Origin: Actinomycetota bacterium
GTDB taxonomy: Bacteria; Actinomycetota; Acidimicrobiia; IMCC26256; VFJJ01
Assembly (NCBI GenBank): GCA_009886115.1
Contig: VFJJ01000063.1
Coordinates: 1 to 56,042, forward strand
Direction: 5' to 3'
Length of the DNA: 56,042 nt
The notes under the pieces are model-generated. The model ran no database searches. It was not told where the DNA came from and was given only the letters and a program-made list of their open reading frames with translations. This document shows, piece by piece, positions 1-16,524 of the stretch (position 1 is the stretch's first letter; each line of letters starts with the position of its first letter). Position numbers and translations under genes: made by a program.

Positions 1-642
1 CCCCCTCCGCCGGGCCCTCCCCCTCCGCCGGGATCTCCGCCTCCGCCGGGATCTCCGCCTCCGCCGGGATCTCCGCCTCCGCCGGGCCCTCCGCCTCCGC
101 CCGGCTCGCAGAACGACGACCGAACCTCGACCACGAGCCGGGGAGCCGGGAGTGGGGTGACGCCGTCCACCGATCGCAGCACGGGTGCGGTGACTCCCGC
201 GTCCGGATCGAGCGGCGGCCCCCGATCGACGACGGTGAGCACTCGGGCGGGATCCCCGGGATCGTCCGGCGCCGGCTCCGGCAGCGGTGACGATGCCGTC
301 GCGGGTGACGTGAACCAGGGATCCGACGCCGCGCCCCTCGACGGTGGCGTCGTGGGGGGAAGTGGCGAGGATGTCTTCGGCAGCGGCAACGGGAGCGACG
401 TCTTCGGAGGCGGTGGGCTCGACGTGGGACAGCCACAGTCCGTCGGGGTTCGCTTCCTGTTCGACGCCGACGGGCGGCTCCGCCAGCTCGACCCCGGCGC
501 CGACAACCTCGACGGCGAGCCCGTGCTCTTCGCACGTGACCTGCCCTCGACCGTTCGGCTGTACGTGCTCGTGGGCGTCGCCGCGTTCGTGATCCTCGTT
601 CCCCCGTTCGTCGCGGCGCAACGCCGACGACGCCGATCGTGA
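1..642 (+). CDS. 5'-truncated Pro/Gly/Ser-rich surface protein with C-terminal membrane anchor
   Basis: Frame is open from base 1 (PPPPGS repeats) into the 157..642 ORF. It ends LPSTV + hydrophobic helix + RRRRRS, and the stop overlaps the next GTG (GTGA). Confidence 0.8.
   Translation, partial: PPPPGPPPPPGSPPPPGSPPPPGSPPPPGPPPPPGSQNDDRTSTTSRGAGSGVTPSTDRSTGAVTPASGSSGGPRSTTVSTRAGSPGSSGAGSGSGDDAVAGDVNQGSDAAPLDGGVVGGSGEDVFGSGNGSDVFGGGGLDVGQPQSVGVRFLFDADGRLRQLDPGADNLDGEPVLFARDLPSTVRLYVLVGVAAFVILVPPFVAAQRRRRRS
4..105 (+). repeat. 18-bp coding tandem repeat (CCGCCTCCGCCGGGATCT, PPPPGS/PPPPGP), about 5-6 copies
   Basis: Directly visible at the start of the window. Confidence 0.9.
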
Positions 643-2990
643 GGAGCACCGACATGACCGCTTCCCCCCATTCCCTTGCGAGCGGGACGCTCCTCGGGCG
701 CCGGCTGTTCCGGGTGGCCGGGCTGACGTGGCTCTTGGCATCGGTGTTGGCGACCTTGGTCGCGGTGGTCGTTCCGTCGGGTGGTGGTGTGGCGCATGCG
801 CAGGTGGGCCGGCAGGTGTCGTTGTCGCAGTCGACCTTGTTGGCTGATGATCAGGTGGTCACGGTGTCGTGGTCGGGGTTCACGCCGGGTGCGCCGGTGT
901 GGTTGCACGAGTGCGGGCCGGGGAGCCCGCCGGCGCCTCCGGCTGCGCTGGTTCCGCCGGCGTCGTGGACGAGTTGTGCGCCGCGGAGCCGGGTGTCGGG
1001 GGTGTCGGACGGCTCGGGTGCGGGAAGCGCGCAGTTCAAGGTCGATCGGAACGTCCCGGCGGTGTCGGGGAGCGCGACGACGGGGTTGACGTGCGGGCCG
1101 CTCGTGGCGGCGTCGAGTCCGTGTTGGTTGGCGGTGAGCGAGTGCGAGTTCGACGTGTTCGCGGGGCGGACGGTGGTGACCCGTCTGAACTTCGCTGCGG
1201 TGACGCCGTTGCCGAACACGACGACGACGACGACGGCGCCGCCGGCGACGACGACCACGACGCGTCCGTTGTTGGGGACGCCGAACCTGTCTGCGTCGGG
1301 TGGTGGTTCGGCGGGGCATGCGATCGGGGTGTGGGAGGTGGGTGCGGCGGGTCGTGGTGTGGTGCTCGATTACACGCGGTTGAACTCGCCGACGGGTCTG
1401 GACCGGTTCGTGTCGGGGAGCGTGAACGCGCAGATCGCGTTCAGCCGGATGGGGTTGTCGGGTCCGCAGTTGCAGGCGGTGCGTGACGCGGGTCGGGATG
1501 CGACGCATGTGCCGTTGGTGGCGGGGGCGACGGTGTTCGCGTTCTCTGGGAACTACTACGGGATCCCGATCACGAGGTTTCGTCTTTCGCCCGAGACGGT
1601 GTCGGGGATCTACCAGGGAGCTGTCCGTGACCTGAGCCACTCGTTGGTGACCGCCGATCACGGTGGCTGCCGTTTTCCCGCCGACCCGAAGACTGGTCGT
1701 GACTACCTGTTGTATCCGGGGGTGCGGACCGACTTGGCTGCGCAGTCGTTGCAGGTGAGCGAGTGGCTCGTTGCGACGGCGCCGAGTTGGACCGACGGGG
1801 CGTCGACGAACTTCCCGTTGGGGTCGAACGTGACGAACTTCTCGCGGAGTGCATCGGAGGAGCTGGCCAGGAAGATCGCCGATCCGTTGGCTGATGCGCT
1901 GGTCCCGTTCGACAGCTTGAAGGTGGCCTACGTCGATCTGTCGGATGCGCTCGAGTTCGGCTTGAACGTCGCCGAGATCGTCAATGCTGACGGTGACGTG
2001 GTGGGTCCGACACCGGCGGCGGTCGCGGCGTCGTTGGCGGCGTCGACGACGAACGCGGATGGTTCGATCGCGTTCGATCCGGCGGAGCCGGTCGACGGGG
2101 CGTATCCGTTGGTGAACTTCACGTATGCGGTGGTGCCGACGGTGGCGACGAGCGCGTTCACCGCAGCCCAGGGTGACCTGGCCCGGACCCTGCTCGACCA
2201 TGTGCTCGACCAGAACGGCGCCGACGTCGCCGATCTCGGGTTCTTCCCGTTGTCGGCCGCCCTCGCTGCCGGCGCGCGGACCCAGGCCAACCTGGTCCCC
2301 AGCGCCACCGGACCCACCACCACAACCACCACCACGACCACCACCACGACCACCACGACCAGCAGCTCGTCGACGTCGTCGACGTCGTCGACGACGAGCA
2401 CCACAAGAGCGTCGACGTCGTCATCGTCGAGCATCACGTCGACCACCAACGACCTCGGCGACAACGACCCCGACGGCGAGACCATCGTGGTCGACGACGA
2501 CGGGTTGGGAGATCCGCTCGGCGACGACGACCCGTTCGGCAGCTCCGGTGGCGGGAGCGGCGACTTCGACAGCGACTTCGGGAGCGGCTCCGGGAGCAGC
2601 TCCGGCAACGGATCGTTCGACACCGGAGAGCTCGGCGAGACGGGCGACACCAGCCTCGAAGGCTCCGGCGACGGTGGCGTGACCCCGGACGATCCTTCGG
2701 GCGATGCCGACGACGGCGGATCGGACGAGTCCGCAGGCGGTGTCGAGATCACCGATTCGGGTGACGAGGCCAACGACGTCCCCACGCTGCTCGCACCCAT
2801 CGCGTACGTCGCCGGGGGGAGCACCCCGGGGGTTCTGCTGCTCCTGCTGCTCGGTGCGGCGCTCCTGGCGGTCGGCGTGGTCACCCGGTTCGATGCCACG
2901 CGGTGGCGAGCGCTCCTCAGCGATGTCGGGCGGTTCGCGGGTGACATCAAGCGCAGCGCCCGGTCGAGCTTCCGACGGCCGGGGAGCTGA
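639..2990 (+). CDS. Membrane-anchored neocarzinostatin-like domain + PstS-like (PBP) domain protein
   Basis: Signal peptide ending VAHA-Q. NCS-like domain (LADDQVVTVSWSGF..ECG..SC..DGSGAGSAQFKV..TCG..PCWL). PstS-like fold (HVPLVAGATVFAF, LSPETVSGIYQG, IVNADGDVVGPT, GAYPLVNFTYAVVPT). Thr/Ser and Asp/Gly linkers, then a C-terminal TM and basic tail. Confidence 0.75.
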   Translation: MRSTDMTASPHSLASGTLLGRRLFRVAGLTWLLASVLATLVAVVVPSGGGVAHAQVGRQVSLSQSTLLADDQVVTVSWSGFTPGAPVWLHECGPGSPPAPPAALVPPASWTSCAPRSRVSGVSDGSGAGSAQFKVDRNVPAVSGSATTGLTCGPLVAASSPCWLAVSECEFDVFAGRTVVTRLNFAAVTPLPNTTTTTTAPPATTTTTRPLLGTPNLSASGGGSAGHAIGVWEVGAAGRGVVLDYTRLNSPTGLDRFVSGSVNAQIAFSRMGLSGPQLQAVRDAGRDATHVPLVAGATVFAFSGNYYGIPITRFRLSPETVSGIYQGAVRDLSHSLVTADHGGCRFPADPKTGRDYLLYPGVRTDLAAQSLQVSEWLVATAPSWTDGASTNFPLGSNVTNFSRSASEELARKIADPLADALVPFDSLKVAYVDLSDALEFGLNVAEIVNADGDVVGPTPAAVAASLAASTTNADGSIAFDPAEPVDGAYPLVNFTYAVVPTVATSAFTAAQGDLARTLLDHVLDQNGADVADLGFFPLSAALAAGARTQANLVPSATGPTTTTTTTTTTTTTTTSSSSTSSTSSTTSTTRASTSSSSSITSTTNDLGDNDPDGETIVVDDDGLGDPLGDDDPFGSSGGGSGDFDSDFGSGSGSSSGNGSFDTGELGETGDTSLEGSGDGGVTPDDPSGDADDGGSDESAGGVEITDSGDEANDVPTLLAPIAYVAGGSTPGVLLLLLLGAALLAVGVVTRFDATRWRALLSDVGRFAGDIKRSARSSFRRPGS

Positions 2991-2995
2991 CGCCG

Positions 2996-4663
2996 ATGTC
3001 GACCGCGCGTCCTTCCGCTCTCGGGCCGACCCACCAGCGCGACGTGGTCACCACGACCACCGACCTGGTCCAGGTCGTCCGCGACGGTGTCGCCTCACTC
3101 GAAACCGAGGCTCGACGGGTCGGACCCGTGACCGAGGGCGAATCGTCGGACGAACCGGAGTTCATGCTCTTGCTGAAGGGTGTCAGCACGCTCCTCGAAC
3201 GGGTCCCGGCGTTCGCGCTCGACGAGCGCGAACGAGCGCTGATCGGAGCCCGGATCGACGATCTGGCGCGCTGGCATGCCGGTCGGGGTCGGTCGCGCAC
3301 CCCGGACAGCTCGATCGCCGCTGCCGGGCTCGAGCCCGTCACACCCGCCGCTCCTGCGCCACCCTCGCCGAGCACTCCGGTGCTGGAACTACCCGAGGCA
3401 GGTCCGGTGCTGGAACAGCAGCCGGCAGATCCGGTGTCGGAGGAGCAGCCGGCAGGTCGGGTGCTGGCGCAGCCCGCGCCAGGTCCGGTGCTGGAGGAGC
3501 AGCCGGCACAGGCACTGCCGCAGCTGCCTGCCCCGGTCGTTCCCGAGGATCCGGTCCTCGAGCACGGGGCGGGCGAACCCCGTGCGGTCTCCGATCCTCG
3601 GGGGCCTTCGCCGCTGCGGCGCCGGATCAGCCAGTTGATGACCGTCACCGGCGTGGTGATCGTGCTGTTCGTCGGCTACCTGCTTGTCGGCAGCGACGTC
3701 AGCCATCAGCGCGACCAGCGCGTCCTCGAGGACCGTCTCCAGCACCATCTCGTGCGGGCCAGCCAACTCGCGGCGCCCGTCGAGATCTTCTTCGAGACCG
3801 ATCCGGCCACGGGCGATCCTCAGATGCCCGAGCTGATCGGCCAACCCCTCGATGTCGCCGTTGCGGCACTCGAAGGACTCGAGTTGACCGTCCAGGTCCG
3901 GGCCACCAAGGACCCCGACGTTCCCGCGGGACGGGTCGTGGGGACCGACATCGAGACCGGCGCAGCGGTGCGCTCGGGAGCCGATGTCGTCGTCGAGGTG
4001 TCGAGTGGTCCGCCGGTCGGCTCGCCGATCGCCATGCTCGAGATCGACGCGGTCGGGGTGGAGGAGGTCGTCGTCGAGGCCACCGGCGCCAGTGAGCTCA
4101 AGGATGGGCCGGGCCACTACCGCGCCAGCTCGATGCCGGGCCACGTCGGCAACGTCGTGATCGCCGGTCGCCGGAGCACCTACGGTGGCCCGTTCTCGCG
4201 AATCGGTGAGCTCGATGCGGGTGACGAGATTCGTGTGACCACGGTGGACGGGGCGTTCACGTACGTCGTCGAGGCGACGGAGGTCGTCGAACGGGGCGAT
4301 CCCGACGTGATCGGCCCGACCGATGACGATCGCCTCACGCTCGTGACCGGCCACCCCCGGTTGCGAGCGGCCGAGCGTCTCGTCGTGACCGCGATCCTCG
4401 ACGGCGAGGCCCTGCCCGAGCCGTTGGGGATCGACCCGCCGACCGACGTCGAGCAGACCGAGACCGGGCTCTTCAGCGACGTCAGGGCGTGGGGCCCGAC
4501 GCTGTTCTGGGGGCAGCTCGTCCTCGGGGCCTACCTGGGGTTGCGGCTCATGGCACGACGGTGGCGTCGGTGGTCGACCTGGTTGGTGAGCACCCCGGTG
4601 CTGCTCGTCCTGGTGCTCGTCTGGTTCGAGAGCATCCACCGCCTGTTCCCGTCGACCCTGTGA
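2996..4663 (+). CDS. Sortase-fold protein (class E-like) with inserted PASTA domain; catalytic His and Cys substituted
   Basis: PIAMLEID..VEEVVVE..LKDGPGHY..MPG.VGNVVIAGRRSTYGGPF..L.AGDEIRVTT..FTYVV..RLTLVTGHP..ERLVVTA. PASTA motif MPELIGQPLDVAVAALEGLEL..VVVEVSSGP. One TM before and two TMs after the domain. Confidence 0.85.
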   Translation: MSTARPSALGPTHQRDVVTTTTDLVQVVRDGVASLETEARRVGPVTEGESSDEPEFMLLLKGVSTLLERVPAFALDERERALIGARIDDLARWHAGRGRSRTPDSSIAAAGLEPVTPAAPAPPSPSTPVLELPEAGPVLEQQPADPVSEEQPAGRVLAQPAPGPVLEEQPAQALPQLPAPVVPEDPVLEHGAGEPRAVSDPRGPSPLRRRISQLMTVTGVVIVLFVGYLLVGSDVSHQRDQRVLEDRLQHHLVRASQLAAPVEIFFETDPATGDPQMPELIGQPLDVAVAALEGLELTVQVRATKDPDVPAGRVVGTDIETGAAVRSGADVVVEVSSGPPVGSPIAMLEIDAVGVEEVVVEATGASELKDGPGHYRASSMPGHVGNVVIAGRRSTYGGPFSRIGELDAGDEIRVTTVDGAFTYVVEATEVVERGDPDVIGPTDDDRLTLVTGHPRLRAAERLVVTAILDGEALPEPLGIDPPTDVEQTETGLFSDVRAWGPTLFWGQLVLGAYLGLRLMARRWRRWSTWLVSTPVLLVLVLVWFESIHRLFPSTL

Positions 4664-4724
4664 GAGACACCGCTGTGCCGCCCATCAGCCCGGTCGCCAC
4701 GGACGGCGAAGCCCAGCCACGAGA

Positions 4725-5693
4725 GTGCCGATGCCCTCGAATCGACTGACGCCGTTCATCGCAGCAGCTGTGCTCGTTGCCATCGTGATGGTGTCACCAG
4801 GAGCCGACGCGTCCGACGCATCCGATACCGCCGGCCCAGCGGGAGGGTCATCGACCGTCGAGTTGCCAGTGGACCTCTCGCCGGAGGTCGGCGCCGCGGC
4901 GATCGGCGCCATGAGCGTTGGCGCGGCCGCGGTCGTTCCCCAATCGCCGGTGGTGGGGATTGCGGCGACGCCGTCGGGCCTGGGGTATTGGTTGGTGGGG
5001 GCTGATGGTGGGATCTTCGCGTTCGGCGACGCCGCGTTCCTCGGTTCGATGGGCGGAGCCGCACTCCAGCGCGAGATCGTGGGGGTGGCTGCGACGCCTT
5101 CGGGTCGGGGGTATTGGTTGGTGGGGGCTGATGGTGGGATCTTCGCCTTCGGCGACGCCCACTTCGCCGGATCGACGGGGAGCTTCCGGCTCAACCGTCG
5201 GATCGTGGCGATTGCTGCGACGCCTTCGGGTCGGGGGTATTGGTTGGTGGCGGCTGATGGTGGGATCTTCGCGTTCGGTGACGCCCACTTCGCCGGATCG
5301 ACCGGAGGCATCGCCCTGAACCGGGCGATCGTGGGGATGGCTGCGACGCCTTCGGGTCGGGGGTATTGGTTGGTGGCGGCTGATGGTGGGATCTTCGCGT
5401 TCGGTGACGCGACGTTCCACGGATCGCCGGCCACCACCCCGGCCAGCCAGAACATCGTTGCGATGATCGCCGATCTCGACGGGGCCGGGTATCTCCTCGT
5501 CGGGGGAGCCGGAGCCATCTTCCCGTTCGGAGCGGCCCGGGCCCGAGGCGGTGCGGTGACGCTCGACCTCGTCGGGGCGGTGGTCGGGATCGTCCGCTCG
5601 GGGTCGGGCAGCGCCTATTGGCTCGGTGCGGCTGACGGTGGCGTCTTCTCGTACGGAAGTGCTCCCTTTCTGGGCTCGCTCTACACCAAGTGA
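4725..5693 (+). CDS. Secreted GYWLVAADGGIFAFGDA-repeat (beta-propeller-like) protein
   Basis: Signal peptide, then four near-identical and two degenerate repeats of about 40 aa. Confidence 0.85.
   Translation: MPMPSNRLTPFIAAAVLVAIVMVSPGADASDASDTAGPAGGSSTVELPVDLSPEVGAAAIGAMSVGAAAVVPQSPVVGIAATPSGLGYWLVGADGGIFAFGDAAFLGSMGGAALQREIVGVAATPSGRGYWLVGADGGIFAFGDAHFAGSTGSFRLNRRIVAIAATPSGRGYWLVAADGGIFAFGDAHFAGSTGGIALNRAIVGMAATPSGRGYWLVAADGGIFAFGDATFHGSPATTPASQNIVAMIADLDGAGYLLVGGAGAIFPFGAARARGGAVTLDLVGAVVGIVRSGSGSAYWLGAADGGVFSYGSAPFLGSLYTK
4950..5425 (+). repeat. 120-bp coding tandem repeat x4 (GCGACGCC..GGGTATTGGTTGGTG..GATGGTGGGATCTTCGC)
   Basis: Near-identical units visible at about 120-bp spacing. 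Confidence 0.9.
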
Positions 5694-5781
5694 CCCTCAG
5701 ACACGCGCGTCCGAAGGTAGTCACTGTACGTCGTAACGTCGCCACAGAACAATAGAAATATCAGCCGCAACGTATGGCGAA

Positions 5782-5814
5782 GTTCACCCCAAGTTGTCGT
5801 AGGTGTCATGGCCG
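5782..5814 (+). promoter_or_regulatory. Putative PHO-box-like 11-bp direct repeats upstream of the pstS-like gene
   Basis: GTTCACCCCAA / GTTGTCGTAGG / TGTCATGGCCG in 11-bp register; resembles the Streptomyces PhoP repeat unit G(G/T)TCAYYY. Confidence 0.4.
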
Positions 5815-5872
5815 TCCCTTAGAACTGGTGGTGCGGAGATTCCGCAACATCCACCGATTTGGGGAGGGTACT

Positions 5873-7153
5873 TTGAAGCGAAGCAGGAAAGTCCTGATGC
5901 TCATGAGCCTGGGAGCGATTGCAGCTACTGCGATCATTCCCAGTGCTGGGGCGCTCCCGCCGCCCGGCAGTCCCGGATTGAACCCCGGCCTGAACGACGT
6001 CGTCGACAAGATCCAGGGTTACGGCTCCGACACCACCTACCCGCTGATGCAGCAGCTCGACGCGGCGTTCAACGGATCGCTGGGCTGCAACCAGGCTGCT
6101 CCGACGTCACCGTACGCCGGCGAGATCCAGAACACCTGTCTCCCGTTCGCGGCGCAGCCCCCGGGCGTGGTCCTGAACGAGAACTGGGACCACGACGCGG
6201 CGATCAGCTACTTCCCGCAAGGCTCGTCGGCTGGTCGCCGTCAGCTCTGCGAGCAGGACGTACCTCGGCCCGGCGGCATCGCGATCACCGACTACGCCCG
6301 TTCGTCGAGCGCCCCGAGCACGACGCCGACGTGTGGCGGCGCAGCCGGCCCGCACACGTTCCGCTTCGTGGCCTTCGCCCGTGACGCTCTCACCTGGGTG
6401 AAGTTCAACACGGTGGGTGGCGGCAGCACCCCTGTGACCAACCTCACGACGGTGCAGCTCAACGAGATCTTCGTGAACTGCGACCTCGAGGTCGGCGATG
6501 CCTTCCCCACGACATACTGGGACGAGGGAACCATCGGCGGCGCGAACCACAACCCGATCCGGGTGTGGAGCGTCCAGAGCGCCTCAGGCACCAGGGCCAC
6601 CTGGGACGGGTTCGTCGGCGGCAACAGCACGCTGTGCATCCCGGCCATCTACAAGGACGGGCTCCCGGCCAACGGCGAGCGCGTGATCCAGGAGCACAAC
6701 GCGGCACCGGTCGTCAGTGCCGTCAACGACGCTGACGCAGCCGACGAGGGCAACTCGATCTTCTACTACGGGTTCGGTCGCTACCAGGTGACCGGTGGAG
6801 AAGGCTCGATCCTCGGAAGCGTCAACGGCATCGCCCCGACCGAAGCCACCATCCAGAACGCGACCTTCCCCTTCGGTCGCTTCGTCTACAACGTGTACCG
6901 CCAGGCCGGCACCGGTCCGACGCTCGCTCCGTACGCGAACGGCTACATCGGATCGTCGGGTTGGATCTGCAAGCCTCCGGGCCAGCACGCCGAGCCCCCG
7001 GGCACGCCCGGCGTCGGCATCGAGGTCGGTGCTGCGCCGGTCGACTACGGCCAGCTGGTCCACGATGTCATCCGCTCGCAGGGCTTCATCCCCCTGCGGA
7101 CCGACATCCAGAACGTGAACCGTTGCGACTTCACCGACGTCGTGTACCCCTGA
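5873..7153 (+). CDS. Secreted PstS-like phosphate-binding (PBP) protein
   Basis: GGGGAGG RBS before TTG 5873; signal peptide; GSDTT, GSSAGR, ARSSS, FARDAL, SGTRATW and FPFGRFVYNV motifs; several Cys. Confidence 0.8.
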   Translation: MKRSRKVLMLMSLGAIAATAIIPSAGALPPPGSPGLNPGLNDVVDKIQGYGSDTTYPLMQQLDAAFNGSLGCNQAAPTSPYAGEIQNTCLPFAAQPPGVVLNENWDHDAAISYFPQGSSAGRRQLCEQDVPRPGGIAITDYARSSSAPSTTPTCGGAAGPHTFRFVAFARDALTWVKFNTVGGGSTPVTNLTTVQLNEIFVNCDLEVGDAFPTTYWDEGTIGGANHNPIRVWSVQSASGTRATWDGFVGGNSTLCIPAIYKDGLPANGERVIQEHNAAPVVSAVNDADAADEGNSIFYYGFGRYQVTGGEGSILGSVNGIAPTEATIQNATFPFGRFVYNVYRQAGTGPTLAPYANGYIGSSGWICKPPGQHAEPPGTPGVGIEVGAAPVDYGQLVHDVIRSQGFIPLRTDIQNVNRCDFTDVVYP

Positions 7154-7339: not shown

Positions 7340-9055
7340 ATGTATACCGAGAGTTCGCATCAACGTCGTCTTCTGGCAAATCTCTCATTCCTTCGAGCGG
7401 TCAAACTCAACTCCGTGGACGCCACGGCACAGCACCCTCGTTCGTTTCCCGTATCCGAGCGTCATCTGGATGATGCTCCTTCGAGCGGCTCGGGCGGTCA
7501 CCGGCGCAGAACGCTGGACGCTCGGCTCGTCGGTCGGAACCTGACCCGGCTCGCGCTCGACATCGTCGGCGCCTCCGTCGGCGCTCTCGTCGCACGTGAT
7601 GCGGTGGGATCGGCGGTGTCGGTGGCCGAGCCCGAGCCGTGGTGGATCGCCGCCGCCGTGGTCCTGTTCGTCGGCGCCCGGTTCGCGACCGGCGCGTATC
7701 ACCGGGTGTGGACCGAGTCGCCGGGCGAGCTGATCGCCGTCTGGAAGGCCTGCGCCGCCGGGCTGGCCGCGGCCCTCGCCCTCGCCTTCGTCGCCGACTC
7801 CGACATGCCCGATCGCTGGGCGAGTGCGGCCGCCTTCACGACGGGCACCTTTGTGATGGCCCTGACGCTCCTCGAGCGCCGGACGGTGCGGTGGTTGCGC
7901 CTCCGGGGACGGATGCGCTGCCGGCTCCTGCTCGTCGGGGCGGGTGGCGACGTCGAACCGATGATCGAGATGCTGGCCGAGCATCCGGAGTGCGGCATCG
8001 ACGTCGTCGGCATCGCCGGACCCGGTGTGTCCGACCGGGCCGATCTGCTGGTGCCCTGGTTCTCGCCCCGAGCCGGTGCCGGAACCCGCCCGACGAACAG
8101 CGGGGCCGCCGACGCGCTCTCGGATGTGCCGGAGCTCGATGTCGACGGCATCTTGCTGCTGCCGGCGTCGGTGGGTGCCCCGACGGCGAACGCCTGTGCT
8201 CGAGCGGTGCGCCGCGTCGGCGGGGCGGTGCTCGTGGCCGGCCCGGTTCGGGGCGCGACCGCTTCATGCCTGCGACCGTCGACCGTGGCCCGCGAGCCGC
8301 TGTGGGACTATCGCGACGCCAGGCTCGGACCGGCGCAGCGCTTCGTCAAGCGCACCCTCGACCTGGGTCTGGGTCTCGTGCTCAGCCTCGTCGCCCTTCC
8401 CGTCATGGGGATCGTCTCGGTGGCGATCATGGTACGAGACGGTCGCCCGATCTTCTTCCGCCAGGTGAGGGTCGGGCGCGACGGCGAGCCGTTCACCATG
8501 TTCAAGTTCCGCACGATGGTGCCCGACGCCGAGCACCGGGTCATCGACCTCCGCTGCGCCAACGAGCGCACCGGACCCCTGTTCAAGCTCACCGACGACC
8601 CCCGGGTCACGCGTGTCGGGCGCTTTCTTCGGACCACCAGCCTCGATGAGCTCCCGCAGCTCATCAACGTGCTGGGCGGCGCGATGAGCCTGGTCGGGCC
8701 CCGTCCCGCCCTCCCGGCCGAGGTCGCCACCTTCGACGAGGCGCTGCTCGATCGGCACCGTGTGAAGCCCGGCATCACCGGGTTGTGGCAGGTCGAGTCA
8801 CGCGACTCCCCGTCGTTCGCCGCCTATCGCCGCCTCGACCTGCACTACGTCGAGAACTGGTCGGTGGGTCTCGACCTGGAGCTGATCGCTCGGACCATCG
8901 GGTCCGTGGCGACGCGAGGGCTCACGCTCGGGCGCGGGTCGAAGGTCGCTGAAGCGCCGCCGCCGTTCAGGGTCCTCGCTGAGGCTCCGGTACAGGTCAA
9001 CGACGGGTTCGTCGGGTTCACAACAGAGCGAGAGGAGCGCCCGTGCGCATCGTGA
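7340..9055 (+). CDS. Polyprenyl-phosphate sugar phosphotransferase (WcaJ/WbaP-like priming transferase); start uncertain
   Basis: Four N-terminal TMs; VKRTLDL, FFRQVRVGRDG.PFTMFKFRTM, DPRVTRVGRFLR.TSLDELPQLINVL.G.MSLVGPRP, VKPGITGLWQV, LDLHYVENWS. Confidence 0.92.
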   Translation: MYTESSHQRRLLANLSFLRAVKLNSVDATAQHPRSFPVSERHLDDAPSSGSGGHRRRTLDARLVGRNLTRLALDIVGASVGALVARDAVGSAVSVAEPEPWWIAAAVVLFVGARFATGAYHRVWTESPGELIAVWKACAAGLAAALALAFVADSDMPDRWASAAAFTTGTFVMALTLLERRTVRWLRLRGRMRCRLLLVGAGGDVEPMIEMLAEHPECGIDVVGIAGPGVSDRADLLVPWFSPRAGAGTRPTNSGAADALSDVPELDVDGILLLPASVGAPTANACARAVRRVGGAVLVAGPVRGATASCLRPSTVAREPLWDYRDARLGPAQRFVKRTLDLGLGLVLSLVALPVMGIVSVAIMVRDGRPIFFRQVRVGRDGEPFTMFKFRTMVPDAEHRVIDLRCANERTGPLFKLTDDPRVTRVGRFLRTTSLDELPQLINVLGGAMSLVGPRPALPAEVATFDEALLDRHRVKPGITGLWQVESRDSPSFAAYRRLDLHYVENWSVGLDLELIARTIGSVATRGLTLGRGSKVAEAPPPFRVLAEAPVQVNDGFVGFTTEREERPCAS

Positions 9056-10329
9056 TGATCGGCCAGCGGGGCGTGCCGGCCACCCATGGCGGCGTCGAGC
9101 ACCACGTGGAGGAGATCGGCAGCCGCCTCGCCGACCGCGGCCACGACGTGACGGTGTTCTGCCGGACGAACTACGTCGAAGAGGGCCGCCGGCGGCATCG
9201 CGGGATGCGCATCGTGCGGGTACCCACGATCGGTACCAAGCACCTCGACGCCATCGTGCACAGCGGTCTCTCGACCGTCGCCGGTGCGCTCGCCCGGGCC
9301 GACATCTACCACTTCCACGCGCTCGGCCCCGGCCTGTTCACCCCGGTCCCCCGGCTGCTCGGGCGGGCCAAGGTGATCCAGACGATCCACGGCCTCGACC
9401 ACGAGCGCTCGAAATGGGGTGGCCTGGCTCAGCAGGTGCTCAAGACCGGCGCCGAGTTCTCGTATCGCGTGCCCCATGCCGTGGTTGCGGTCTCGCGAGC
9501 CCTCGCCGCGCACTACCGGGCGAACTCGTCGGTGCCGATCGCCTACGTGCCCAACGGCGCTCCGAGCCCGCGGCACCGGCCGCCGGGACCGGTGCTGGCC
9601 GAGCTGGGTCTCGAAGCGGGACGGTACGCGCTCTTCGTCGGGCGGCTGGTGCCCGAGAAGGCCCCCGATGCGCTGGTGCAGGCCTTCGCCCGACTCGAGA
9701 CCGACCAGAAGCTCGTGATCGTCGGGGGGAGCTCCTTCACCGACGGGTACGTGGAGTCGCTCGAACGGATGGCCGCGGCCGACCCCCGTTGCGTGATGGC
9801 CGGATGGCGTTTCGGTGAGGACCTCGACGAGCTGTACTCCAACGCCGGGCTGTTCGTGCTGCCCTCGCTGCTCGAAGGTCTGCCGCTCACGTTGCTCGAG
9901 GCCGCGTCGTTCGGGCTGCCGATCATCGCCAGCTCGATCCCCCCGCACGTCGAGGTCCTCAGGCATGCCGGCCCCGGGCGTCGTCTGGTCGAGCCCGGCG
10001 ACGTCGACGCGCTCGCGGCCGAGATCACCCAGGCGATGGCCGACCCCCGGGCCGAACGACTCGGCGCGACGGAGCTCCGGGCCGAGGTGTGCGAGCACTA
10101 CGACTGGGACCTCGTCACCGACGCCACCGAGGATCTCTACCAGCGGGTGATCGAGGGGCGGCCGCTGGGTCGGCCGGGCACGCTCTACGACAACGTGGTG
10201 CTGCGCCGACGACCCGAGACCATCGAGCTCGTCCAGCGGATCGGCGTGCCTGTCGGTGCGACGCCGATCCGGTGGTCACCCGCGTCGCCGGATCGCGATC
10301 ATCCCGCCGCGGCGAGCGCAGTGGCGTAG
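9043..10329 (+). CDS. GT4 glycosyltransferase
   Basis: MRIVMIGQRGVPA.HGGVE, FVGRLVPEK, LPSLLEGLPLTLLEAAS; GAGGAG RBS. Confidence 0.92.
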   Translation: MRIVMIGQRGVPATHGGVEHHVEEIGSRLADRGHDVTVFCRTNYVEEGRRRHRGMRIVRVPTIGTKHLDAIVHSGLSTVAGALARADIYHFHALGPGLFTPVPRLLGRAKVIQTIHGLDHERSKWGGLAQQVLKTGAEFSYRVPHAVVAVSRALAAHYRANSSVPIAYVPNGAPSPRHRPPGPVLAELGLEAGRYALFVGRLVPEKAPDALVQAFARLETDQKLVIVGGSSFTDGYVESLERMAAADPRCVMAGWRFGEDLDELYSNAGLFVLPSLLEGLPLTLLEAASFGLPIIASSIPPHVEVLRHAGPGRRLVEPGDVDALAAEITQAMADPRAERLGATELRAEVCEHYDWDLVTDATEDLYQRVIEGRPLGRPGTLYDNVVLRRRPETIELVQRIGVPVGATPIRWSPASPDRDHPAAASAVA

Positions 10330-11567
10330 ATGCCGTCGAGCTCGTCGAGGTGGCGGTCACGGGCGAAGCGTCCGACCGCCACCGCTCGGGCTCGCGCACC
10401 CATGCCTCGGGCGCGCTCGGGATCCTCGAGCAGCATCGTGATGGCTCGGGCCAGTTCCTCGGGGTCGTTCGGCGGAACGAGCAGCCCGGTCGAGCCGTCC
10501 TCGACGAGGTCGGGAAGCCCTCCCAGCGTCGTGGCGATCACGGGTACGCCACAGGCGAACGCCTCGAGGACGATGATCGGCTGGTTCTCGTGCCACACGG
10601 ACGGGACCGCCACGGCCCTCGCCGATCGGATGAGGGCGTGGACCGCTGCTCGATCGAGTCGACCACGCCAGCTCACCCGTCCCGGCGCGATCCGCGCGGC
10701 CCGTTCCTCGAGCTCGGCCCGCAACGGCCCGTCACCGGCGATCACGAGACGCGCTTCGGGTCCAGCCTGGGCGATGGCGTCGATGAGGACGCCGACCCCC
10801 TTCTCGCTGGCGATCCGCCCGGCGAAGACGATCGGGCCATCGTCGGGTGTGCTCGGTCGGATGATCCCGGCCCGGAGGCCGATGTCGGTGTCGGTGTCGA
10901 TGTCGATGTCGACGAAGTGGTCGAGCACCTTGATCCGCTCGGCGGCGAAGCCGGCCGCCAGCATCCGCTCGGCCAGGAAACGACTCGGACAGATGAGGGT
11001 CGAGGCGTGACCGTACGCGCCGAGCGCCCGGTGCACCGTCGACTCAACCGCCAGCGTGAGGCTCGCGCCAAGCGATCCGTCCTTGCAGCGCATGGTGATC
11101 GCGTGGCGGAACGAGCTGCCGACGCAGCGCTCACAGATCGATCCGCCCGCGAGCAGCTGGTACGAGGGGCAGATCAGCTTGTAGTCGTGGAGGGTCATCA
11201 CGGTGGGGACTCCCGCTCGCCGGAGCGCCCACAGCACCGACGGTGAGAGCTGGTGGTACACGTTGTGGAGATGGGCGACGTCAGGTCGGAAGCGATCGAC
11301 GACAGCCCCGATGCCGTCGCTCGACGACTTCGACCACAGCATCCGTCCCGTCGCCCGGGCCTTGCCGATCGCCGAGCGCGGCGCCGGTTCGAGCTCGATG
11401 TGATCGGGGAACCAGGAGTCGTACTCGAACGGCGGGTTTTCGGGATGGTCCATCCCGAAGAACGCGATGTCATGGCCCCGGCTCGCCTGAGCATGGGCGA
11501 CGTCGAGCATGTACGCCTCGGCGCCGCCTTTTCGGTAGAGGAACTTGTTGACGTGGAGGATCCTCAT
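10299..11567 (-). CDS. GT4 glycosyltransferase (true start inside the long 10299..15275 ORF)
   Basis: MRILHVNKFLYRKGGAE, HLHNVYHQLSPS, TLHDYKLICP, GRIASEKG, PSVWHENQPIIVLEA. Its 3' end overlaps the convergent GT4 by 31 bp. Confidence 0.92.
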   Translation of the reverse strand: MRILHVNKFLYRKGGAEAYMLDVAHAQASRGHDIAFFGMDHPENPPFEYDSWFPDHIELEPAPRSAIGKARATGRMLWSKSSSDGIGAVVDRFRPDVAHLHNVYHQLSPSVLWALRRAGVPTVMTLHDYKLICPSYQLLAGGSICERCVGSSFRHAITMRCKDGSLGASLTLAVESTVHRALGAYGHASTLICPSRFLAERMLAAGFAAERIKVLDHFVDIDIDTDTDIGLRAGIIRPSTPDDGPIVFAGRIASEKGVGVLIDAIAQAGPEARLVIAGDGPLRAELEERAARIAPGRVSWRGRLDRAAVHALIRSARAVAVPSVWHENQPIIVLEAFACGVPVIATTLGGLPDLVEDGSTGLLVPPNDPEELARAITMLLEDPERARGMGARARAVAVGRFARDRHLDELDGIYATALAAAG

Positions 11568-11602
11568 GGCGCGGCGGCTCCGCTGGGCTGGGAAGGACGG
11601 GC

Positions 11603-14389
11603 TCACGACGCGACGGCCTCGAGGTCGATGGTTCGCCCGTGCGCGTCGCCTTCGAGGTCTTGGAGGTCGATGACCCCGGGGCCGGCGACGGGGGCTCGGG
11701 TGGCCTCGTCGGGCGGCGGCGTCAGAGCTGATCGTGGGACGAGCGCGTTGGCACAACAGGCGAACGCGGCGAGATACCAGACCACCGCAACCTGCGACAC
11801 CACGTTGGCCGCGATCGACAGCGTCACGAACGCCGTGATGCAGCCGGCGAACGCGACGACCACGGCCCGGTCGAACGCTCGCGCCGTTCGTGTGGCCCGC
11901 AGGGCCTCGCGAGCGCCGCGAACCAGGCTGTTCATGAACCACAGGTAGCCGAACAGCCCCACGACGCCGGTCTCGACGAAGATCCGGAGGAAGTCGTTGT
12001 GCGGTGCCTTGCCGGTCACGAGCTCCTCGGCCGTGGTGTCGAGGCCGATCCCCGTCACCGGGTTGGCGTCGGCGAGCTCGAGGACGTCGCCCCAGTACTC
12101 GAAGCGCCAGACCAAAGAGTTCCCTGCGGTGCCCGAGAGGTTGCGGGTGTCCTCGAGCTCGGTGAAGCGCGCCACCGTCGACGGCACCAGCAGCGCGATG
12201 GCGATGACGCTTCCGACCAGCACCACGAGCAGACCCCGAGAACGCCGCAGGACGGCCACCACCACGATCCCGAGGAACGTGGCGATCCAAGCGCCGCGGG
12301 CATAGGAGCTCACCAGCCCCACGGCACAGGCCGCGGTGGCCGCCACCAACGCAACACGGGCGACACCCCGCACCACCGGGGCCAGCGCGATCCCGGCGAT
12401 GACGAGAAACGCGAGATACATGGCGTACGGGTTGGGGTGCAAGAAGGTGCCCCGGACCCGGTCGATCGTGTCGATCTCGACCCGGCCCCGCCTTGTCACC
12501 TGCTGATGGATGCCGACGAGGACGGGGATGAAGGCAGAGACGTAGACGGCGACCAGGACCCGTGAGACACGCCGTCGATCGGCGAGGAGACGGTCGCAGG
12601 CCGCGAACATCATGACGATGGTGAGGATGCGCAGCGCTTCGACGGCGCTCGTCGACGGGTTCACCGAGCCGAGCACGCTCACCGACGATGCGGCCACGAA
12701 CGCCACCGCCCCCTTGGTCACCGGCCCGTACCGGTGTGGGTGGCCCATGGTCTGCACGGTGAGCCAGAGCAGGGTCGCGAGGATGAGCGCGAAGCCCGTC
12801 ACCGAGGCCGGGTCGAGCTGGCCGCTGCGCTGCGAGCCGATGATGTCGAGGCTGGCCCGGACCGCGAGCGCCCCGAGCACCACCACCTCGAAGCGCACGA
12901 GGGTCACCGCCACGGCCGCCGCGGCGAGGGCGCCGAGCGCCACGCCGAGCACCACGGTCGATGACGCCCGTCCGAGCCCGTAGCCGGCCCCGGCGGTGAC
13001 GAGCGCGGCGATCACGAGCGCGCCGGTGAGCATCCCCGAGCCCGCCACCGGTGGCCTCGGAGAGGGAGCGAACGTCGGACCGCCATCCACGCCCGGATCG
13101 ACTGCGGCTCCAGCGGGCACCCGTCCGCGCGTCGCCGTCGCTGTCGCTGGCGCGGTCGCCGGATGCTCCGCCAGGGCCCGGTCGAGCTGGCGCCAGAACA
13201 GCCCGGCGCCGATGGCGTTGGCCAAGGCCAGCCCCGTGAGGGCGCCCGTCGAGCCGGCGACGGCGGCTCCGACCACCCCGCCGACCACGGTGAGGGGCAC
13301 GATCGAGATGCGGGCCCGGAACGATCGTTGCGACTCGGCGGTGGCCCGCAAGCCCACCAGGGCCCCCGATGTGGCGCCGATGCCGGCCATGAGCGCGGCC
13401 TGCGGCACCAGGACGGGCTGGGCTTCGCGCCAGCTCGCACCGAGCAGCTCGACGCCGATCGAGTCGGGGATGACCATGGCCCCGAGCCCGCACGCGAAGG
13501 CCACCAGGGCCAACGATGCCGAGAGCCGGACGGCGTAGGGACGGAGCGCGTCGGGGTCGCGGTGCCAGATCCGGACCGCCTCGGGCGTGGCCACGAGGTT
13601 GGCCCCCAGCAACAGCACCTGGAGCGGGCCGAACAGCACCTGCGCGGCGCGGATCGCTCCCAGGGCCGAGAGCCCTCCCGTGATGCCGACCGCGGTGATC
13701 GCCAGCTGGCGAGCCCCGGCCCGGGCCACGAACTCCCCGCTGTAGTGCCGTCCCAGGTCCCACGTCGAGCGCAACCACGTCGCCGCCCTGGCGGGAGCGG
13801 GCCTGATGCCCGACTGGACGATTCCGGCCACCGCCGCGACCGATGCCGCTGCACCCCAGGCGGCCGTGAACCAGAACACCGTCCGGTGCCCCGATGCGAT
13901 CACGAGCGCTACGGAGCCGCCCTGGGCCGCGGCCCAGATGGCGTCGTTGGCCACGGCCCGAGCGGGACGGCCCTGGGCGAGGAACACTTCGCGCCAGGTG
14001 TCTTGGACCAGGAGGCCCGGGAGGCTCAGCCCGAGAGCGAGCAGGGCCGCGCCGGCGTTGCCGGCGACAATCCCGCCGACGACCGCGAACGGGCCGCCCA
14101 CGACGATGCCCAGCACGAGTGCGTACCCCGTCGCCTCGGCGATGGGCCGGTCGGCGCTGCCACCCCAGCCCAGGGTGGCGCTGAAGCGGACGATCAGGGG
14201 CTCGCCCGAGGTGGCCCGGGCCAGTCCCAGCACGAGCGTGTAGGCGAGAAACGCCAGTCCGAAGGCCCCGAAGCCGTCGGCGTCGAGCTGGCGGGCCACC
14301 AGCACGGCCAGCGCGAAGTTCGTGAGGCTCGAGAGGCACTGGTCGAGGATCGTCCATGCGCCCCGCCGCGTCGCCGGGGCCGGGCTCAC
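11603..14389 (-). CDS. Fused Wzx-like flippase + Wzy/WaaL-like (Wzy_C) polymerase/ligase, 928 aa
   Basis: GTGA-coupled start. N-half: LDQCLSSLTNFALAVLVARQL...FGAF plus many TMs. C-half: RVRGTFLHPN, SYARGAWI, SLVWRFEYW, PVTGIG, APHNDFLRIFVETGVVG. Confidence 0.8.
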   Translation of the reverse strand: MSPAPATRRGAWTILDQCLSSLTNFALAVLVARQLDADGFGAFGLAFLAYTLVLGLARATSGEPLIVRFSATLGWGGSADRPIAEATGYALVLGIVVGGPFAVVGGIVAGNAGAALLALGLSLPGLLVQDTWREVFLAQGRPARAVANDAIWAAAQGGSVALVIASGHRTVFWFTAAWGAAASVAAVAGIVQSGIRPAPARAATWLRSTWDLGRHYSGEFVARAGARQLAITAVGITGGLSALGAIRAAQVLFGPLQVLLLGANLVATPEAVRIWHRDPDALRPYAVRLSASLALVAFACGLGAMVIPDSIGVELLGASWREAQPVLVPQAALMAGIGATSGALVGLRATAESQRSFRARISIVPLTVVGGVVGAAVAGSTGALTGLALANAIGAGLFWRQLDRALAEHPATAPATATATRGRVPAGAAVDPGVDGGPTFAPSPRPPVAGSGMLTGALVIAALVTAGAGYGLGRASSTVVLGVALGALAAAAVAVTLVRFEVVVLGALAVRASLDIIGSQRSGQLDPASVTGFALILATLLWLTVQTMGHPHRYGPVTKGAVAFVAASSVSVLGSVNPSTSAVEALRILTIVMMFAACDRLLADRRRVSRVLVAVYVSAFIPVLVGIHQQVTRRGRVEIDTIDRVRGTFLHPNPYAMYLAFLVIAGIALAPVVRGVARVALVAATAACAVGLVSSYARGAWIATFLGIVVVAVLRRSRGLLVVLVGSVIAIALLVPSTVARFTELEDTRNLSGTAGNSLVWRFEYWGDVLELADANPVTGIGLDTTAEELVTGKAPHNDFLRIFVETGVVGLFGYLWFMNSLVRGAREALRATRTARAFDRAVVVAFAGCITAFVTLSIAANVVSQVAVVWYLAAFACCANALVPRSALTPPPDEATRAPVAGPGVIDLQDLEGDAHGRTIDLEAVAS

Positions 14390-15426
14390 GGCGTGCTCGC
14401 CCGGCCGACGACGCGGTTGGGGAGAGGGCCCGTGCCCGTTCGGTGGTCGATGGGTCGGGCGACGGTGCCCGCATCGATGGGTGCTTCGACGTCGCGGGTG
14501 GTGAGCGCCGGATCGTCGACCTCGTAACCGAGTCGGCGCAGGTGGACACGGAGCGACTCGTCGAGCAGCGCGCTCGCAGCGGGACCGAGGTCGCCGCGGA
14601 ACGCCGCGGTCCGGTCCGACGAGAAGCTGTGCCGGCCGAGCGCTCGCTCGAAGCCGACCGTCCAGGGTAGGCCGAGGAACTCCAGCATCCGGGCGAACGA
14701 CTCCCGCGGGGAATCGACGATGTCCTCGTAGCGCACCTCGAGCCAGCGGGCCTCGGGGATCTCGTCGCGAGCCGCGACGAAGGCGTCGAGCAGGAGCTTC
14801 CAGGCCAGGCCGGCGAGCAGCGTGTACGACCGTCCGCTCGACTCCCACTCGGCGGCCAGCGCCGGCGGGAGCGGCCCGAAGTGCCAACCCTCGGGGCCGT
14901 GATGCCCTCGCCACCAGGGCATCTGTACCCAGGAGTTGGCGACCGCCCGCCCGTCGCGCACCACATGGATGAAGCGCGCGCCCTCGAAGACCTCGTCGAG
15001 CAGGCCCACCCTGGGCCATCCCGTGAACTTGTGCAGGAGGAGATCACAGCCCTCGCGCTCGGCCACCGCTGCGAAGGAGCGGCGAAGGCGGTGGGCGATC
15101 CAGGGGGTCGCATCGCCGCGGCCGAGATCGCGTGACGGGTCGGACAGCATCGGCGAGATCTCGCGCTCGAGCAGCCGGTACCCCTCCGACGGGGCCAGGC
15201 GCACCCTGCCCTTGGTGGTCGCGCTCGGTGGCAAGCGCCGATAGAGGTCCGCCGCCAGGCGCTCGGCCCGACCACCGAGGCGGTACCGGTCCGACACGTT
15301 CGTGATGAAGGCCACGTCGCGGTGCCGGCTCAGCACCTCGTGCACCAGGGTCGAGCCGCACCGTCCGGTTCCGAGGACGAACGCCGTGCGCTGCCCGTCT
15401 TCGGGACGAGGTGAACGCCCGGTCAT
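14386..15426 (-). CDS. PAPS-dependent sulfotransferase
   Basis: GTGRCGST (5'-PSB), HVVRDGRAVANS (3'-PB), VRYEDIV; ATGA-coupled start. Confidence 0.9.
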   Translation of the reverse strand: MTGRSPRPEDGQRTAFVLGTGRCGSTLVHEVLSRHRDVAFITNVSDRYRLGGRAERLAADLYRRLPPSATTKGRVRLAPSEGYRLLEREISPMLSDPSRDLGRGDATPWIAHRLRRSFAAVAEREGCDLLLHKFTGWPRVGLLDEVFEGARFIHVVRDGRAVANSWVQMPWWRGHHGPEGWHFGPLPPALAAEWESSGRSYTLLAGLAWKLLLDAFVAARDEIPEARWLEVRYEDIVDSPRESFARMLEFLGLPWTVGFERALGRHSFSSDRTAAFRGDLGPAASALLDESLRVHLRRLGYEVDDPALTTRDVEAPIDAGTVARPIDHRTGTGPLPNRVVGRASTP

Positions 15427-16319
15427 GGATAGCCGTAGGTCGCCAGCTGCCCTGCCTGGTAGCTGTCGATGCGCTCGATCGTGTCGGGGTCGAGGCGCCG
15501 CTGCCAGTCCTCGTTGCGGTCGGGGTACGAGAGGCGGCTGAGCCGGTCTCGCCACGAGGGCATGGGGTCGAGACCACCCCAGGTCGCCACCTGTTCGAAC
15601 ACCCCGAGGGGATCCCGGGTGATCTCCTCGTAACGGACGCGCAGGACCTGCTGCGGCGGAACCCCGGCCAGGCCCTGCTCCATCGCCTGGCACTCCTCGA
15701 CCCAGTGGCGAGCCCGGAGCTCCCAGGGGTCACGTCCGAGACGGTCCCACGCCTGGGGCGTTCCGTCGTGCCACCACCACACCGGGAACGTCGGCCACCA
15801 GTCGACCTGGGCCAGCGACGCAGCGACGGCCCGGCCATCGCGGACGAGGGCCACGAAGCGGGCATCCGGGAACTCGTCGAGGAGACGGTCGACCCGGCGA
15901 TTGTGGTCGATGCGCTTGCTGATGACGACCCGGCCCCCGCTCCAGCGCTGGAGCTCGCGAAAGGTGCGCCGGACCGTGACCGCTGGCCGCCGGTCACCTG
16001 AGTCGGTCTCGTCGAGACCGAGGCCGCACCGGCGAAAGATCGGCTCGCCCTCGACCGGGGACGGAAACGCCCGTTCGAGCAGCCCTCGGCTGCGACCGTA
16101 GGAGTAGGCGTTGGAGTCGGGACCGAACCAGGCTGCGAGTTGCCGGTCAGGGGCAAATCGGATACCGCGATGGATGATCGCAACCGGTGCAAGCCCGGGA
16201 AAGCGACGAACCCAATTCGAGATGTATGCGGCACCCGGGTGCAGGCAGAGAACCTTGTAGAGCAGGCTCGTGCCCGAACGCGGCGCACCCAGGACGAACA
16301 GCGGTGTCTGCCGGCTCAT
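15423..16319 (-). CDS. PAPS-dependent sulfotransferase
   Basis: PLFVLGAPRSGTSLL, FPDARFVALVRDGRAVAAS, VRYEEITRDP. Confidence 0.9.
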   Translation of the reverse strand: MSRQTPLFVLGAPRSGTSLLYKVLCLHPGAAYISNWVRRFPGLAPVAIIHRGIRFAPDRQLAAWFGPDSNAYSYGRSRGLLERAFPSPVEGEPIFRRCGLGLDETDSGDRRPAVTVRRTFRELQRWSGGRVVISKRIDHNRRVDRLLDEFPDARFVALVRDGRAVAASLAQVDWWPTFPVWWWHDGTPQAWDRLGRDPWELRARHWVEECQAMEQGLAGVPPQQVLRVRYEEITRDPLGVFEQVATWGGLDPMPSWRDRLSRLSYPDRNEDWQRRLDPDTIERIDSYQAGQLATYGYP

Positions 16320-16458
16320 GACACCGCTCGCACGTCGCTCAACCTGGTCAACGTGGTCTTTCTTACGTTGGTCATGGCCCCCTGCGCTGGCCTCAGGCGC
16401 CGCTGCACGGCACGAACGTAGCCACAGACGCCGGGCCGGAGGCACTCGGTGCTCAGAC

Positions 16459-16524
16459 GTTCATGGAGCATCCAGCTGGTGTTCGGGCGTTGTTCATGCA
16501 ACGGTTCAGCGCCCTTCCTATCGT
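16459..16524 (+). promoter_or_regulatory. PHO-box-like 11-bp repeat array in the divergent promoter of the polysaccharide cluster
   Basis: GTTCAT at 16459, GTTCGG at 16481 and GTTCAT at 16492 are in 11-bp register; GTTCAG at 16504 is one base off. Confidence 0.4.

Follow-up and report, generated by a model that had tools for sequence, protein, structure and literature searches.

The first 7.2 kb of contig VFJJ01000063.1 (GenBank assembly GCA_009886115.1), from an Actinomycetota bacterium of the class Acidimicrobiia, carry five tightly packed genes on the + strand, the third of which encodes a sortase homologue lacking the catalytic Cys and His. The whole stretch of DNA analysed, referred to below as the window, is 56,042 nucleotides (nt) long and starts at base 1 of the contig. 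The array comprises the 3′ end of a gene for the phosphate-binding protein PstS (1–642), a gene for a surface protein of 783 amino acids (aa) (639–2990), the pseudo-sortase gene (2996–4663), a gene for a secreted repeat protein (4725–5693) and a gene for a PstS-family binding protein (5774–7153). The intergenic gaps are −4, 5, 61 and 80 nt, the guanine plus cytosine (GC) content is about 70% and no terminator-like site was seen in a search of the + strand of the array.

The pseudo-sortase has 555 aa and was characterised with Pfam, alignments to solved sortases, an AlphaFold2 (AF2) model and Foldseek. It consists of a cytoplasmic N-terminal region (residues 1–230), transmembrane (TM) helix 1 (residues 231–258, positions 3686–3769; helix 2–29 of the AF2 model, which starts at residue 230), a PASTA domain (residues 276–336, 3821–4003), a sortase β-barrel (residues 348–467, 4037–4396), TM helices 2 and 3 joined by a short basic loop (residues 496–522 and 525–548, 4481–4639; model helices 267–293 and 296–319) and an extracellular C-terminal pentapeptide, FPSTL (4646–4660), which occupies the place of the family-wide ending LP[ASGN][TL]L. 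The PASTA domain was assigned by PF03793 (E = 3.2e-09, 37.1 bits with a cut-off of 23.2) and matches the PASTA structures of PknB (2kui, 2kud); the barrel was assigned by PF04203 (E = 6e-26, 91.1 bits with a cut-off of 26.6). The model of residues 230–555, built from an alignment of 150 sequences, has a mean predicted local distance difference test score (pLDDT) of 91.1, with 92–97 in TM helices 2 and 3, and a predicted template modelling score (pTM) of 0.87. Foldseek places it among class D/E sortases, with 4d70 (E = 2e-14, TM-score 0.74), 5go5 (TM-score 0.75) and a range of 0.74–0.76 that includes 5go6. The general sortase model TIGR01076 is exceeded (51.5 bits, cut-off 39.35), while the best NCBIfam match, class E sortase NF033747, stays below its threshold (115.8 bits, cut-off 160); matches in the ESM Atlas are unnamed sortase clusters exclusively, with scores of 0.78–0.79. 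The cytoplasmic extension contains a 27/54-bp tandem repeat at 3376–3508 (about 4.9 and 2.1 copies), which codes for Pro/Glu/Gln-rich units resembling PVLEEQPA.

The active-site columns were read from a residue-by-residue alignment to 4d70, 5go5, 5go6 and 5uus and compared with the DNA. Where 4d70, 5go5 and 5go6 have AGHR, the window protein has Arg392 (CGC, 4169–4171), changing AGH to AGR. At the position of the catalytic Cys, which lies in TLTTCEP in 5go5, TLVTCEP in 5go6 and TTCHP in 5uus, it has Gly452 (GGC, 4349–4351), changing TLxTC to TLVTG. The catalytic Arg is retained as Arg461 (CGT, 4376–4378) in the motif ERL. Alignments and DNA thus agree with the initial annotation, which had reported these three residues, and Pfam, AF2 and Foldseek bear out its description of an intact sortase fold with a PASTA domain, a long N-terminal extension (about 230 residues precede TM helix 1) and two additional C-terminal TM helices. 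As judged from the sequence and its model, the fold is intact and the catalytic residues are gone, so that no thioester intermediate would be possible; the protein belongs to the sortase superfamily by fold and hidden Markov model matches and, by the defining catalytic residues, is no sortase enzyme.

These features are common to a large set of proteins. A word-based search returned 28 homologues (identifiers beginning with P), of which 27 were aligned; P0028 was dropped because the match covered the PASTA part alone. Cys is missing from 22 of the 27, and in these the His column is occupied by Arg (18), Lys (2) or His (2; P0002 and P0008). The other five are canonical; Cys-containing relatives include P0010, P0015, P0018 and P0019. 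The nearest homologue, P0002 (55% identity), has His, with Ala in place of Cys. A profile made from the 22 Cys-less proteins was searched against 1.84 billion cluster representatives and matched 24,639 of them at E ≤ 1e-3 and 2277 at E ≤ 1e-30; the 150th best match still scores 288 bits over the full length. Among these best 150 matches, a list that leans towards Cys-less forms because the profile was built from Cys-less members, the Cys column contains Ser (84), Ala (52), Thr (6), Gly (5), Val (1), Leu (1) or Glu (1) and never Cys. The His column of the same 150 contains Arg (124), His (19), Lys (6) or Ser (1), which leaves 131 without His; the catalytic Arg is present in 85, and all three residues of the triad are lost in 65.

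The distribution of residues bears on the possibility that the family is still enzymatic, with Ser or Thr at the Cys position acting together with the His of the GPGH motif, or with a retained catalytic His, to cleave or attach the anchored neighbours. Ser or Thr does fill the Cys column in 90 of the 150 matches, the GPGH His is present in 147, and the combination His/Ser/Arg occurs in 12 of 174 aligned stretches. The window protein itself, however, has Gly and Arg at the Cys and His columns. Ala or Gly stands at the nucleophile position in 57 of the 150 matches, which excludes a general Ser-for-Cys replacement chemistry; together with the 65 proteins that have lost the whole triad, this leaves no family-wide alternative nucleophile, and residual catalysis is considered very unlikely.

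The same counts argue against a decayed gene. A strain-specific loss of function, a sequencing error or a chance position beside phosphate-transport (pst) genes might be suspected since each of the two substitutions (CGC and GGC) is one base away from a His or Cys codon and since frameshifts are found in some related loci. Against this, the open reading frame is intact, the model is confident and Cys is found in none of the 150 matches. The orthologues also lack it, both the 22 Cys-less homologues and all 19 of the related genome loci in which the column can be read (see below), and in respect of Cys they agree with the initial annotation, which had argued for a pseudo-enzyme and not for decay. 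The conserved core motifs and invariant architecture indicate function rather than decay, and an explanation by decay, error or chance is almost certainly wrong. The two C-terminal helices and the LP[ASGN][TL]L ending are found in 26 of the 27 aligned homologues (the exception is P0027), and an xPxxx end in 167 of 171 family proteins. The Cys-less proteins with three helices constitute a large, coherent and apparently undescribed clade of actinobacterial pseudo-sortases.

The PASTA domain has a narrower distribution. Besides the window protein, it was found in three of 38 longer homologues scanned (P0083, P0085 and P0102) and in none of 21 proteins scanned from related loci. The two C-terminal helices, listed in the initial annotation alongside the PASTA insert as peculiarities of this protein, are features of the family, and the PASTA insert marks a subgroup. 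Lipid II is the second substrate of sortases. In one alternative reading, the main ligand of the protein would be the cell wall or lipid II, bound through PASTA and through the site at which the sortase fold takes its second substrate; the proteins of the Pst locus would thereby be tied to sites of wall synthesis, or the state of the wall reported, with no binding of neighbour anchors. The position of PASTA between TM helix 1 and the sortase domain and its recurrence in three homologues favour this idea, as do fusions in which a family-2 glycosyltransferase precedes a Cys-less sortase (P0096, 838 aa, and L004:8192–10639). The rarity of PASTA, however, means that it does not explain the family-wide linkage to pst genes described below, and wall or lipid II binding as the main function is regarded as unlikely.

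Twenty-two related loci (identifiers beginning with L) were taken, one genome per species, with the pattern G[RK]R[TSV][TA]YGGPF, derived from eight closer sequences; this pattern selects forms with Arg or Lys in place of His and leaves the Cys column free. The loci come from Acidimicrobiia, Gaiellales, Mycobacteriales, Frankiales, Pseudonocardiaceae, Microthrixaceae, Iamiaceae, Actinoplanes, Jiangella, Kribbella and Peterkaempfera. Two bins, those of L004 and L018, are labelled Candidatus Dormiibacterota and Solibacteraceae, that is, outside Actinomycetota; gene transfer or mis-binning is possible in these cases. In the 19 loci with a gene call spanning the column, the Cys position is taken by Ser (9), Ala (8), Thr (1) or Gly (1), and the catalytic Arg is present in four. 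The homologues from the loci score 75.7–88.6 bits with class E sortase model NF033747.

Neighbour families were defined by our own gene calls and clustering, with Pfam assignments. At least one PstS-type gene is present in 21 of the 22 loci; the locus in which none was seen, L007, extends 3.9 kb upstream of the sortase gene, which is directly followed by a gene for a PstB-type ATPase. A full PstS with a PBP_like_2 domain (84–141 bits, about 450–690 aa) is encoded in 17 loci, a pair of BPD_transp_1 permeases of the PstC/PstA type in 14 and an ATP-binding cassette (ABC) ATPase in 17, which is an adjacent PstB-type protein in 16 and, in L021, a distal 423-aa protein of another architecture. Members of the C1 family, the cluster containing the product of 5774–7153, occur in 19 loci; tblastn matches to that protein were found in 13 loci and to the PstS-like domain of the 639–2990 product in 18. 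NCBIfam scoring of L002, L009 and L012 gave 241–261 bits for PstC (cut-off 196) and 202–258 for PstA (cut-off 193), above the thresholds in all three; PstS scored 188–208 (cut-off 205), with L012 (188) falling below and the other two passing, and PstB scored 328–340, 3–15 bits under its cut-off of 343.

The commonest gene order, found in the nearest relatives L002, L004 and L006, is pstC, pstA, pstB, pstS, a gene for a large protein, the pseudo-sortase gene, in some cases a gene for a small lipoprotein, and the C1 gene; in another group of loci, the pseudo-sortase gene directly precedes pstB. The pseudo-sortase gene overlaps the upstream surface-protein gene by four nt, start to stop, in L001, L011, L013, L015, L021 and L022. 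Linkage of the pseudo-sortase gene to pst loci is conserved, in line with the proposal of the initial annotation that PstS-like genes and pstC, pstA and pstB accompany it, and the recurrence of PstS-type genes beside it in 21 of 22 loci across several actinobacterial orders speaks against a chance neighbourhood.

The first gene of the window (1–642) comprises 213 codons and is open at its 5′ end; it was identified by alignment with PstS of related loci. Its product has a linker rich in Pro, Gly and Ser, a PV motif and, at the C-terminus, a TM helix with PPF and an RRRRRS tail. It can be aligned to the corresponding linker and anchor region of 15 PstS proteins from related loci, the N-terminal part of which is a PBP_like_2 domain with 84–141 bits. 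The gene is therefore the 3′ end of the genuine pstS of the locus; its stop codon overlaps the start of the next gene (639–642). The end of the protein reads LPSTV, TM helix, RRRRRS. An LPxT at this position is absent from the other 15 aligned PstS tails, and neither LPxTG nor LAxTG was seen in the C-termini of the neighbour proteins. In the 16 aligned tails, PP[LFG] occurs within the TM helix in 11 and PV upstream of it in 10, and most have a basic tail. The large stalked proteins of the related loci likewise have a TM helix followed by basic residues at their C-terminal end.

The product of 639–2990, analysed with Pfam, an AF2 model and Foldseek, has a signal or anchor helix, a neocarzinostatin-like Ig domain (residues 60–167; Pfam Neocarzinostat, 32.1 bits, cut-off 25), a degenerate PstS-fold domain (about 215–555), a disordered Thr/Ser/Asp/Gly-rich stalk (560–731) and a TM helix (731–776). 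Its score with the PstS model TIGR00975, 61 bits, is below the cut-off of 205. The AF2 model has a mean pLDDT of 62, rising to 70–92 within the PstS-fold domain, and is matched by Foldseek to PstS3 (4lvq, E = 2.7e-18, TM-score 0.85). The genuine PstS proteins of related loci contain all four phosphate-binding motifs (GAGSTW, GxGS, DF and RSDGSGTS) in 12 of 13 cases, motifs which we take to correspond to the phosphate ligands of E. coli PstS, Thr10, Ser38, Asp56, Arg135 and Ser139–Thr141. All four are absent from the 639–2990 product and from all 16 homologues aligned with it, and the protein is a stalked, tail-anchored pseudo-PstS that probably does not bind phosphate. A word-based search for its homologues gave four matches, probably because low-complexity words crowded out other relatives, and a search for longer fused forms gave two, which were uninformative.

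The fifth gene (5774–7153) encodes a protein with a signal peptide that belongs to the PstS family, according to its match to PF12849 (PBP_like_2; 51.3 bits, cut-off 27); with TIGR02136, it scores 41 bits, below the cut-off of 206.6. The start codon is uncertain, an independent gene call beginning at 5978. Motifs of the PstS family 2 type (GSDTT, GSxxG, D.ARSS and SGT) are present in this protein and in most of 21 aligned family members, and it may bind an oxyanion. A phmmer search with this protein and the 639–2990 product against PDB sequences gave no match. The neighbourhood had earlier been described as two membrane-anchored surface proteins and two PstS-like domains. The PstS fold of the 639–2990 product and the PBP_like_2 domain of the 5774–7153 product stand; the former, however, has lost its phosphate-binding motifs, and 1–642 does not encode a separate surface protein.

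The reading preferred here, to which we assign a probability of about 0.5, is that the pseudo-sortase belongs to an extended Pst locus as a non-catalytic subunit with a sortase fold and serves as a scaffold or assembly factor for C-terminally anchored PstS-type proteins. The make-up of this locus and the linkage of its genes are established by the counts in the related genomes: it comprises PstC, PstA and PstB, a genuine PstS with a long linker and a C-terminal helix, the stalked protein with a degenerate PstS fold and the second PstS-family protein, with the pseudo-sortase gene probably co-transcribed. With its three membrane helices, the protein is predicted to expose the PASTA domain and the intact barrel on the extracellular side. 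We infer an adaptor mechanism, in which the groove of the sortase and the three-helix bundle would be reused as a module for binding peptides and helices. This module would recognise anchors resembling sorting signals, in which a juxtamembrane motif with Pro is followed by a TM helix and basic residues and LPxTG is lacking, and would not cleave them; PstS-type proteins could thereby stay assembled and in place beside the transporter, with a possible additional wall contact through the PASTA domain. The interpretation offered in the initial annotation, of a pseudo-enzyme acting as scaffold or chaperone in a phosphate-capture surface complex, is partly supported by the analysis as a whole.

Several observations weigh against an anchor-binding subunit of the Pst system. 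The anchor motifs are only partly conserved, and the linkage was counted for forms without His, which places its specificity to dead forms outside the count. The window contains no pstC, pstA or pstB, because the contig starts inside pstS; by analogy with the related loci, these genes would be expected beyond base 1 in the source organism. No PstC/PstA-type permease and no adjacent PstB-type ATPase were found within 10 kb in L015, L016, L017, L019 and L021. Pairwise ratios of non-synonymous to synonymous substitution rates (dN/dS) are 0.34–0.77 at dS of 0.5–1.1 and with a strong bias of GC content at third codon positions (GC3), and are uninformative because dS is saturated at such divergence. 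In about six of the 22 loci (L011, L016, L018, L020, L021 and L022), a frameshift or truncation seems to affect the sortase gene. At about 10000–10700 in these loci, the tblastn pieces lie in different frames or the C-terminus deviates, which could come from decay or from assembly error; L022 lies on a complete Kribbella chromosome.

A further proposal concerns the C-terminus of the pseudo-sortase. The LPxTL tail, almost invariant in the family, directly follows TM helix 3 and is reminiscent of the LPxT in a sorting signal; its pLDDT in the AF2 model is about 94. This extracellular tail might be a built-in pseudo-substrate that occupies the dead site of its own or a neighbouring protomer, as if a sortase had been frozen with its substrate bound, and the anchors of PstS-type proteins or, in nine of the 22 loci, of WxL/DUF916-like fibre subunits would compete with it for the groove; the result would be a non-covalent stand-in for sortase anchoring that builds a wall-crossing phosphate-binding stalk or fibre. 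Retention of the active-site Arg tracks Thr in the tail (80/13 vs 14/60; Fisher p = 6e-19, a value that ignores kinship). Mapped on a tree, the Arg state shows at least 10 changes, from which only six independent pairs are obtained; the tail follows Arg in 2.8 of these pairs, moves against it in 0.3 and stays constant in 2.8. The sign test on these six pairs is not significant (median p 0.375), and a self-docked pseudo-substrate is therefore possible but unproven; the proposal as a whole is a doubtful one.

The nearest characterised proteins are the class D/E sortases, namely SrtE of Streptomyces (5go5, 5cuw) and SrtD of Clostridium perfringens (4d70). They have the same β-barrel (TM-score 0.70–0.76, rmsd about 2–3 Å), the motifs GPGH and PGxxGN, the TL.T strand and an N-terminal membrane anchor. 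Unlike them, the pseudo-sortase lacks Cys and His, has two extra C-terminal TM helices, a conserved LPxTL end and, in this member, a PASTA domain, and is encoded inside a pst locus and not beside LAxTG or LPxTG substrates. As in PstSCAB systems, the related loci encode PstC, PstA, PstB and a PstS with four phosphate motifs, the window itself holding the 3′ end of pstS. In contrast to PstSCAB, the PstS of these loci has a long linker followed by a C-terminal TM helix as its anchor and is not a lipoprotein; the locus additionally encodes the stalk protein of degenerate PstS fold, another member of the PstS family and the pseudo-sortase. Catalytically dead LytM-domain factors are envelope pseudo-enzymes reused as binding or regulatory modules; they likewise retain an intact enzyme fold, have lost catalytic residues and are maintained by selection within an envelope complex, although their fold and partners differ.

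The WxL/DUF916 loci of Bacillota (Elr, Csc) are also multi-gene surface loci with C-terminally anchored DUF916-like and WxL-like proteins. No DUF916/DUF3324 or WxL domain was found by Pfam in the five genes of the array. Among the 22 related loci, nine (L007, L009, L011, L015, L017, L018, L020, L021 and L022) have a WxLIP-like gene, whose DUF916/WxLIP_PGBD-like product carries a TM helix at its C-terminus, and in these nine loci WxL-like, Big_3_5 or fn3 proteins adjoin the pseudo-sortase; genes of these kinds include L009:12458–13369, L009:13684–14718 and L022:8646–9794. Of eight DUF916/WxLIP_PGBD-like proteins scanned, five matched Pfam, with 24.7–38.3 bits, and the Pfam scores of the actinobacterial WxL/DUF916-like genes are weak overall (23.6–38.3 bits). 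The Elr system has an active SrtA and an LPxTG base subunit, whereas the sortase homologue described above is catalytically dead and its locus is linked to Pst. According to the part of a recent preprint available to us, WxL chaperone-pilin operons are restricted to Bacillota, and there is a small Actinomycetota satellite of chaperone sequences (bioRxiv 10.64898/2026.10.17.759780).

In the accessible part of a review on actinobacterial phosphate transport (PMC7866108), the word 'sortase' does not occur, and the part seen of a study of tail-anchored twin-arginine translocation (Tat) substrates (PMC10924467) does not mention PstS. A full-text literature search yielded no description of a sortase clade without Cys or of a sortase homologue in a pst operon. 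Three Cys-less homologues are named 'sortase A', 'class D sortase' and 'sortase' in databases, and such labels overstate the sortase-dependent surface proteome of the genomes that carry them. Since cysteine transpeptidation is what defines sortases and the basis on which they are studied, a large, conserved clade that gave up Cys, usually His and often Arg, and kept the fold would be the first pseudo-enzyme branch of the sortase superfamily that we could trace in the literature. Its association with pst genes suggests that high-affinity phosphate uptake in Actinomycetota has an accessory layer not described before. Culturable carriers, including Kribbella, Jiangella, Actinoplanes and Peterkaempfera, make the idea testable by ordinary genetics.

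A 980-aa homologue, P0037, has a neocarzinostatin-like domain and PBP_like_2 ahead of a Cys-less sortase. It was considered as Rosetta-stone evidence and set aside, as there is no TM helix between the halves and the fusion may be a read-through artefact.

The remaining gene of the array (4725–5693) encodes a secreted protein of 322 aa, recognised by a tandem-repeat scan and composed of 42-aa 'GYWLVGADGGIFAFGDA' units with the pattern GYWLVGADGGIFAFGDAxFxGS. The underlying 126-bp tandem repeat (4953–5492) is present in 3.8–4.3 copies with a nucleotide identity of 80–85%. No family was assigned by Pfam or NCBIfam. Relatives were found in two of the 22 related loci, and the gene is an accessory one rather than a constant member of the locus. 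A 1484-aa fn3 protein (L019:7991–12445) terminates in this repeat, which is also found in L005:1284–2381.

A polysaccharide cluster lies directly downstream of the array (7604–20037). It includes a Bac_transf initiating transferase, two GT4 glycosyltransferases, a 928-aa protein similar to Wzy_C/O-antigen ligases and three genes of the sulfotransferase family. At 15–17 kb downstream of the locus, there is a weak match to a PhoX-like alkaline phosphatase (22045–23613, 45.8 bits), followed by a gene for a 2174-aa NHL-repeat β-propeller protein (23853–30377); the region 22045–30377 is possibly a phosphorus-scavenging neighbourhood.

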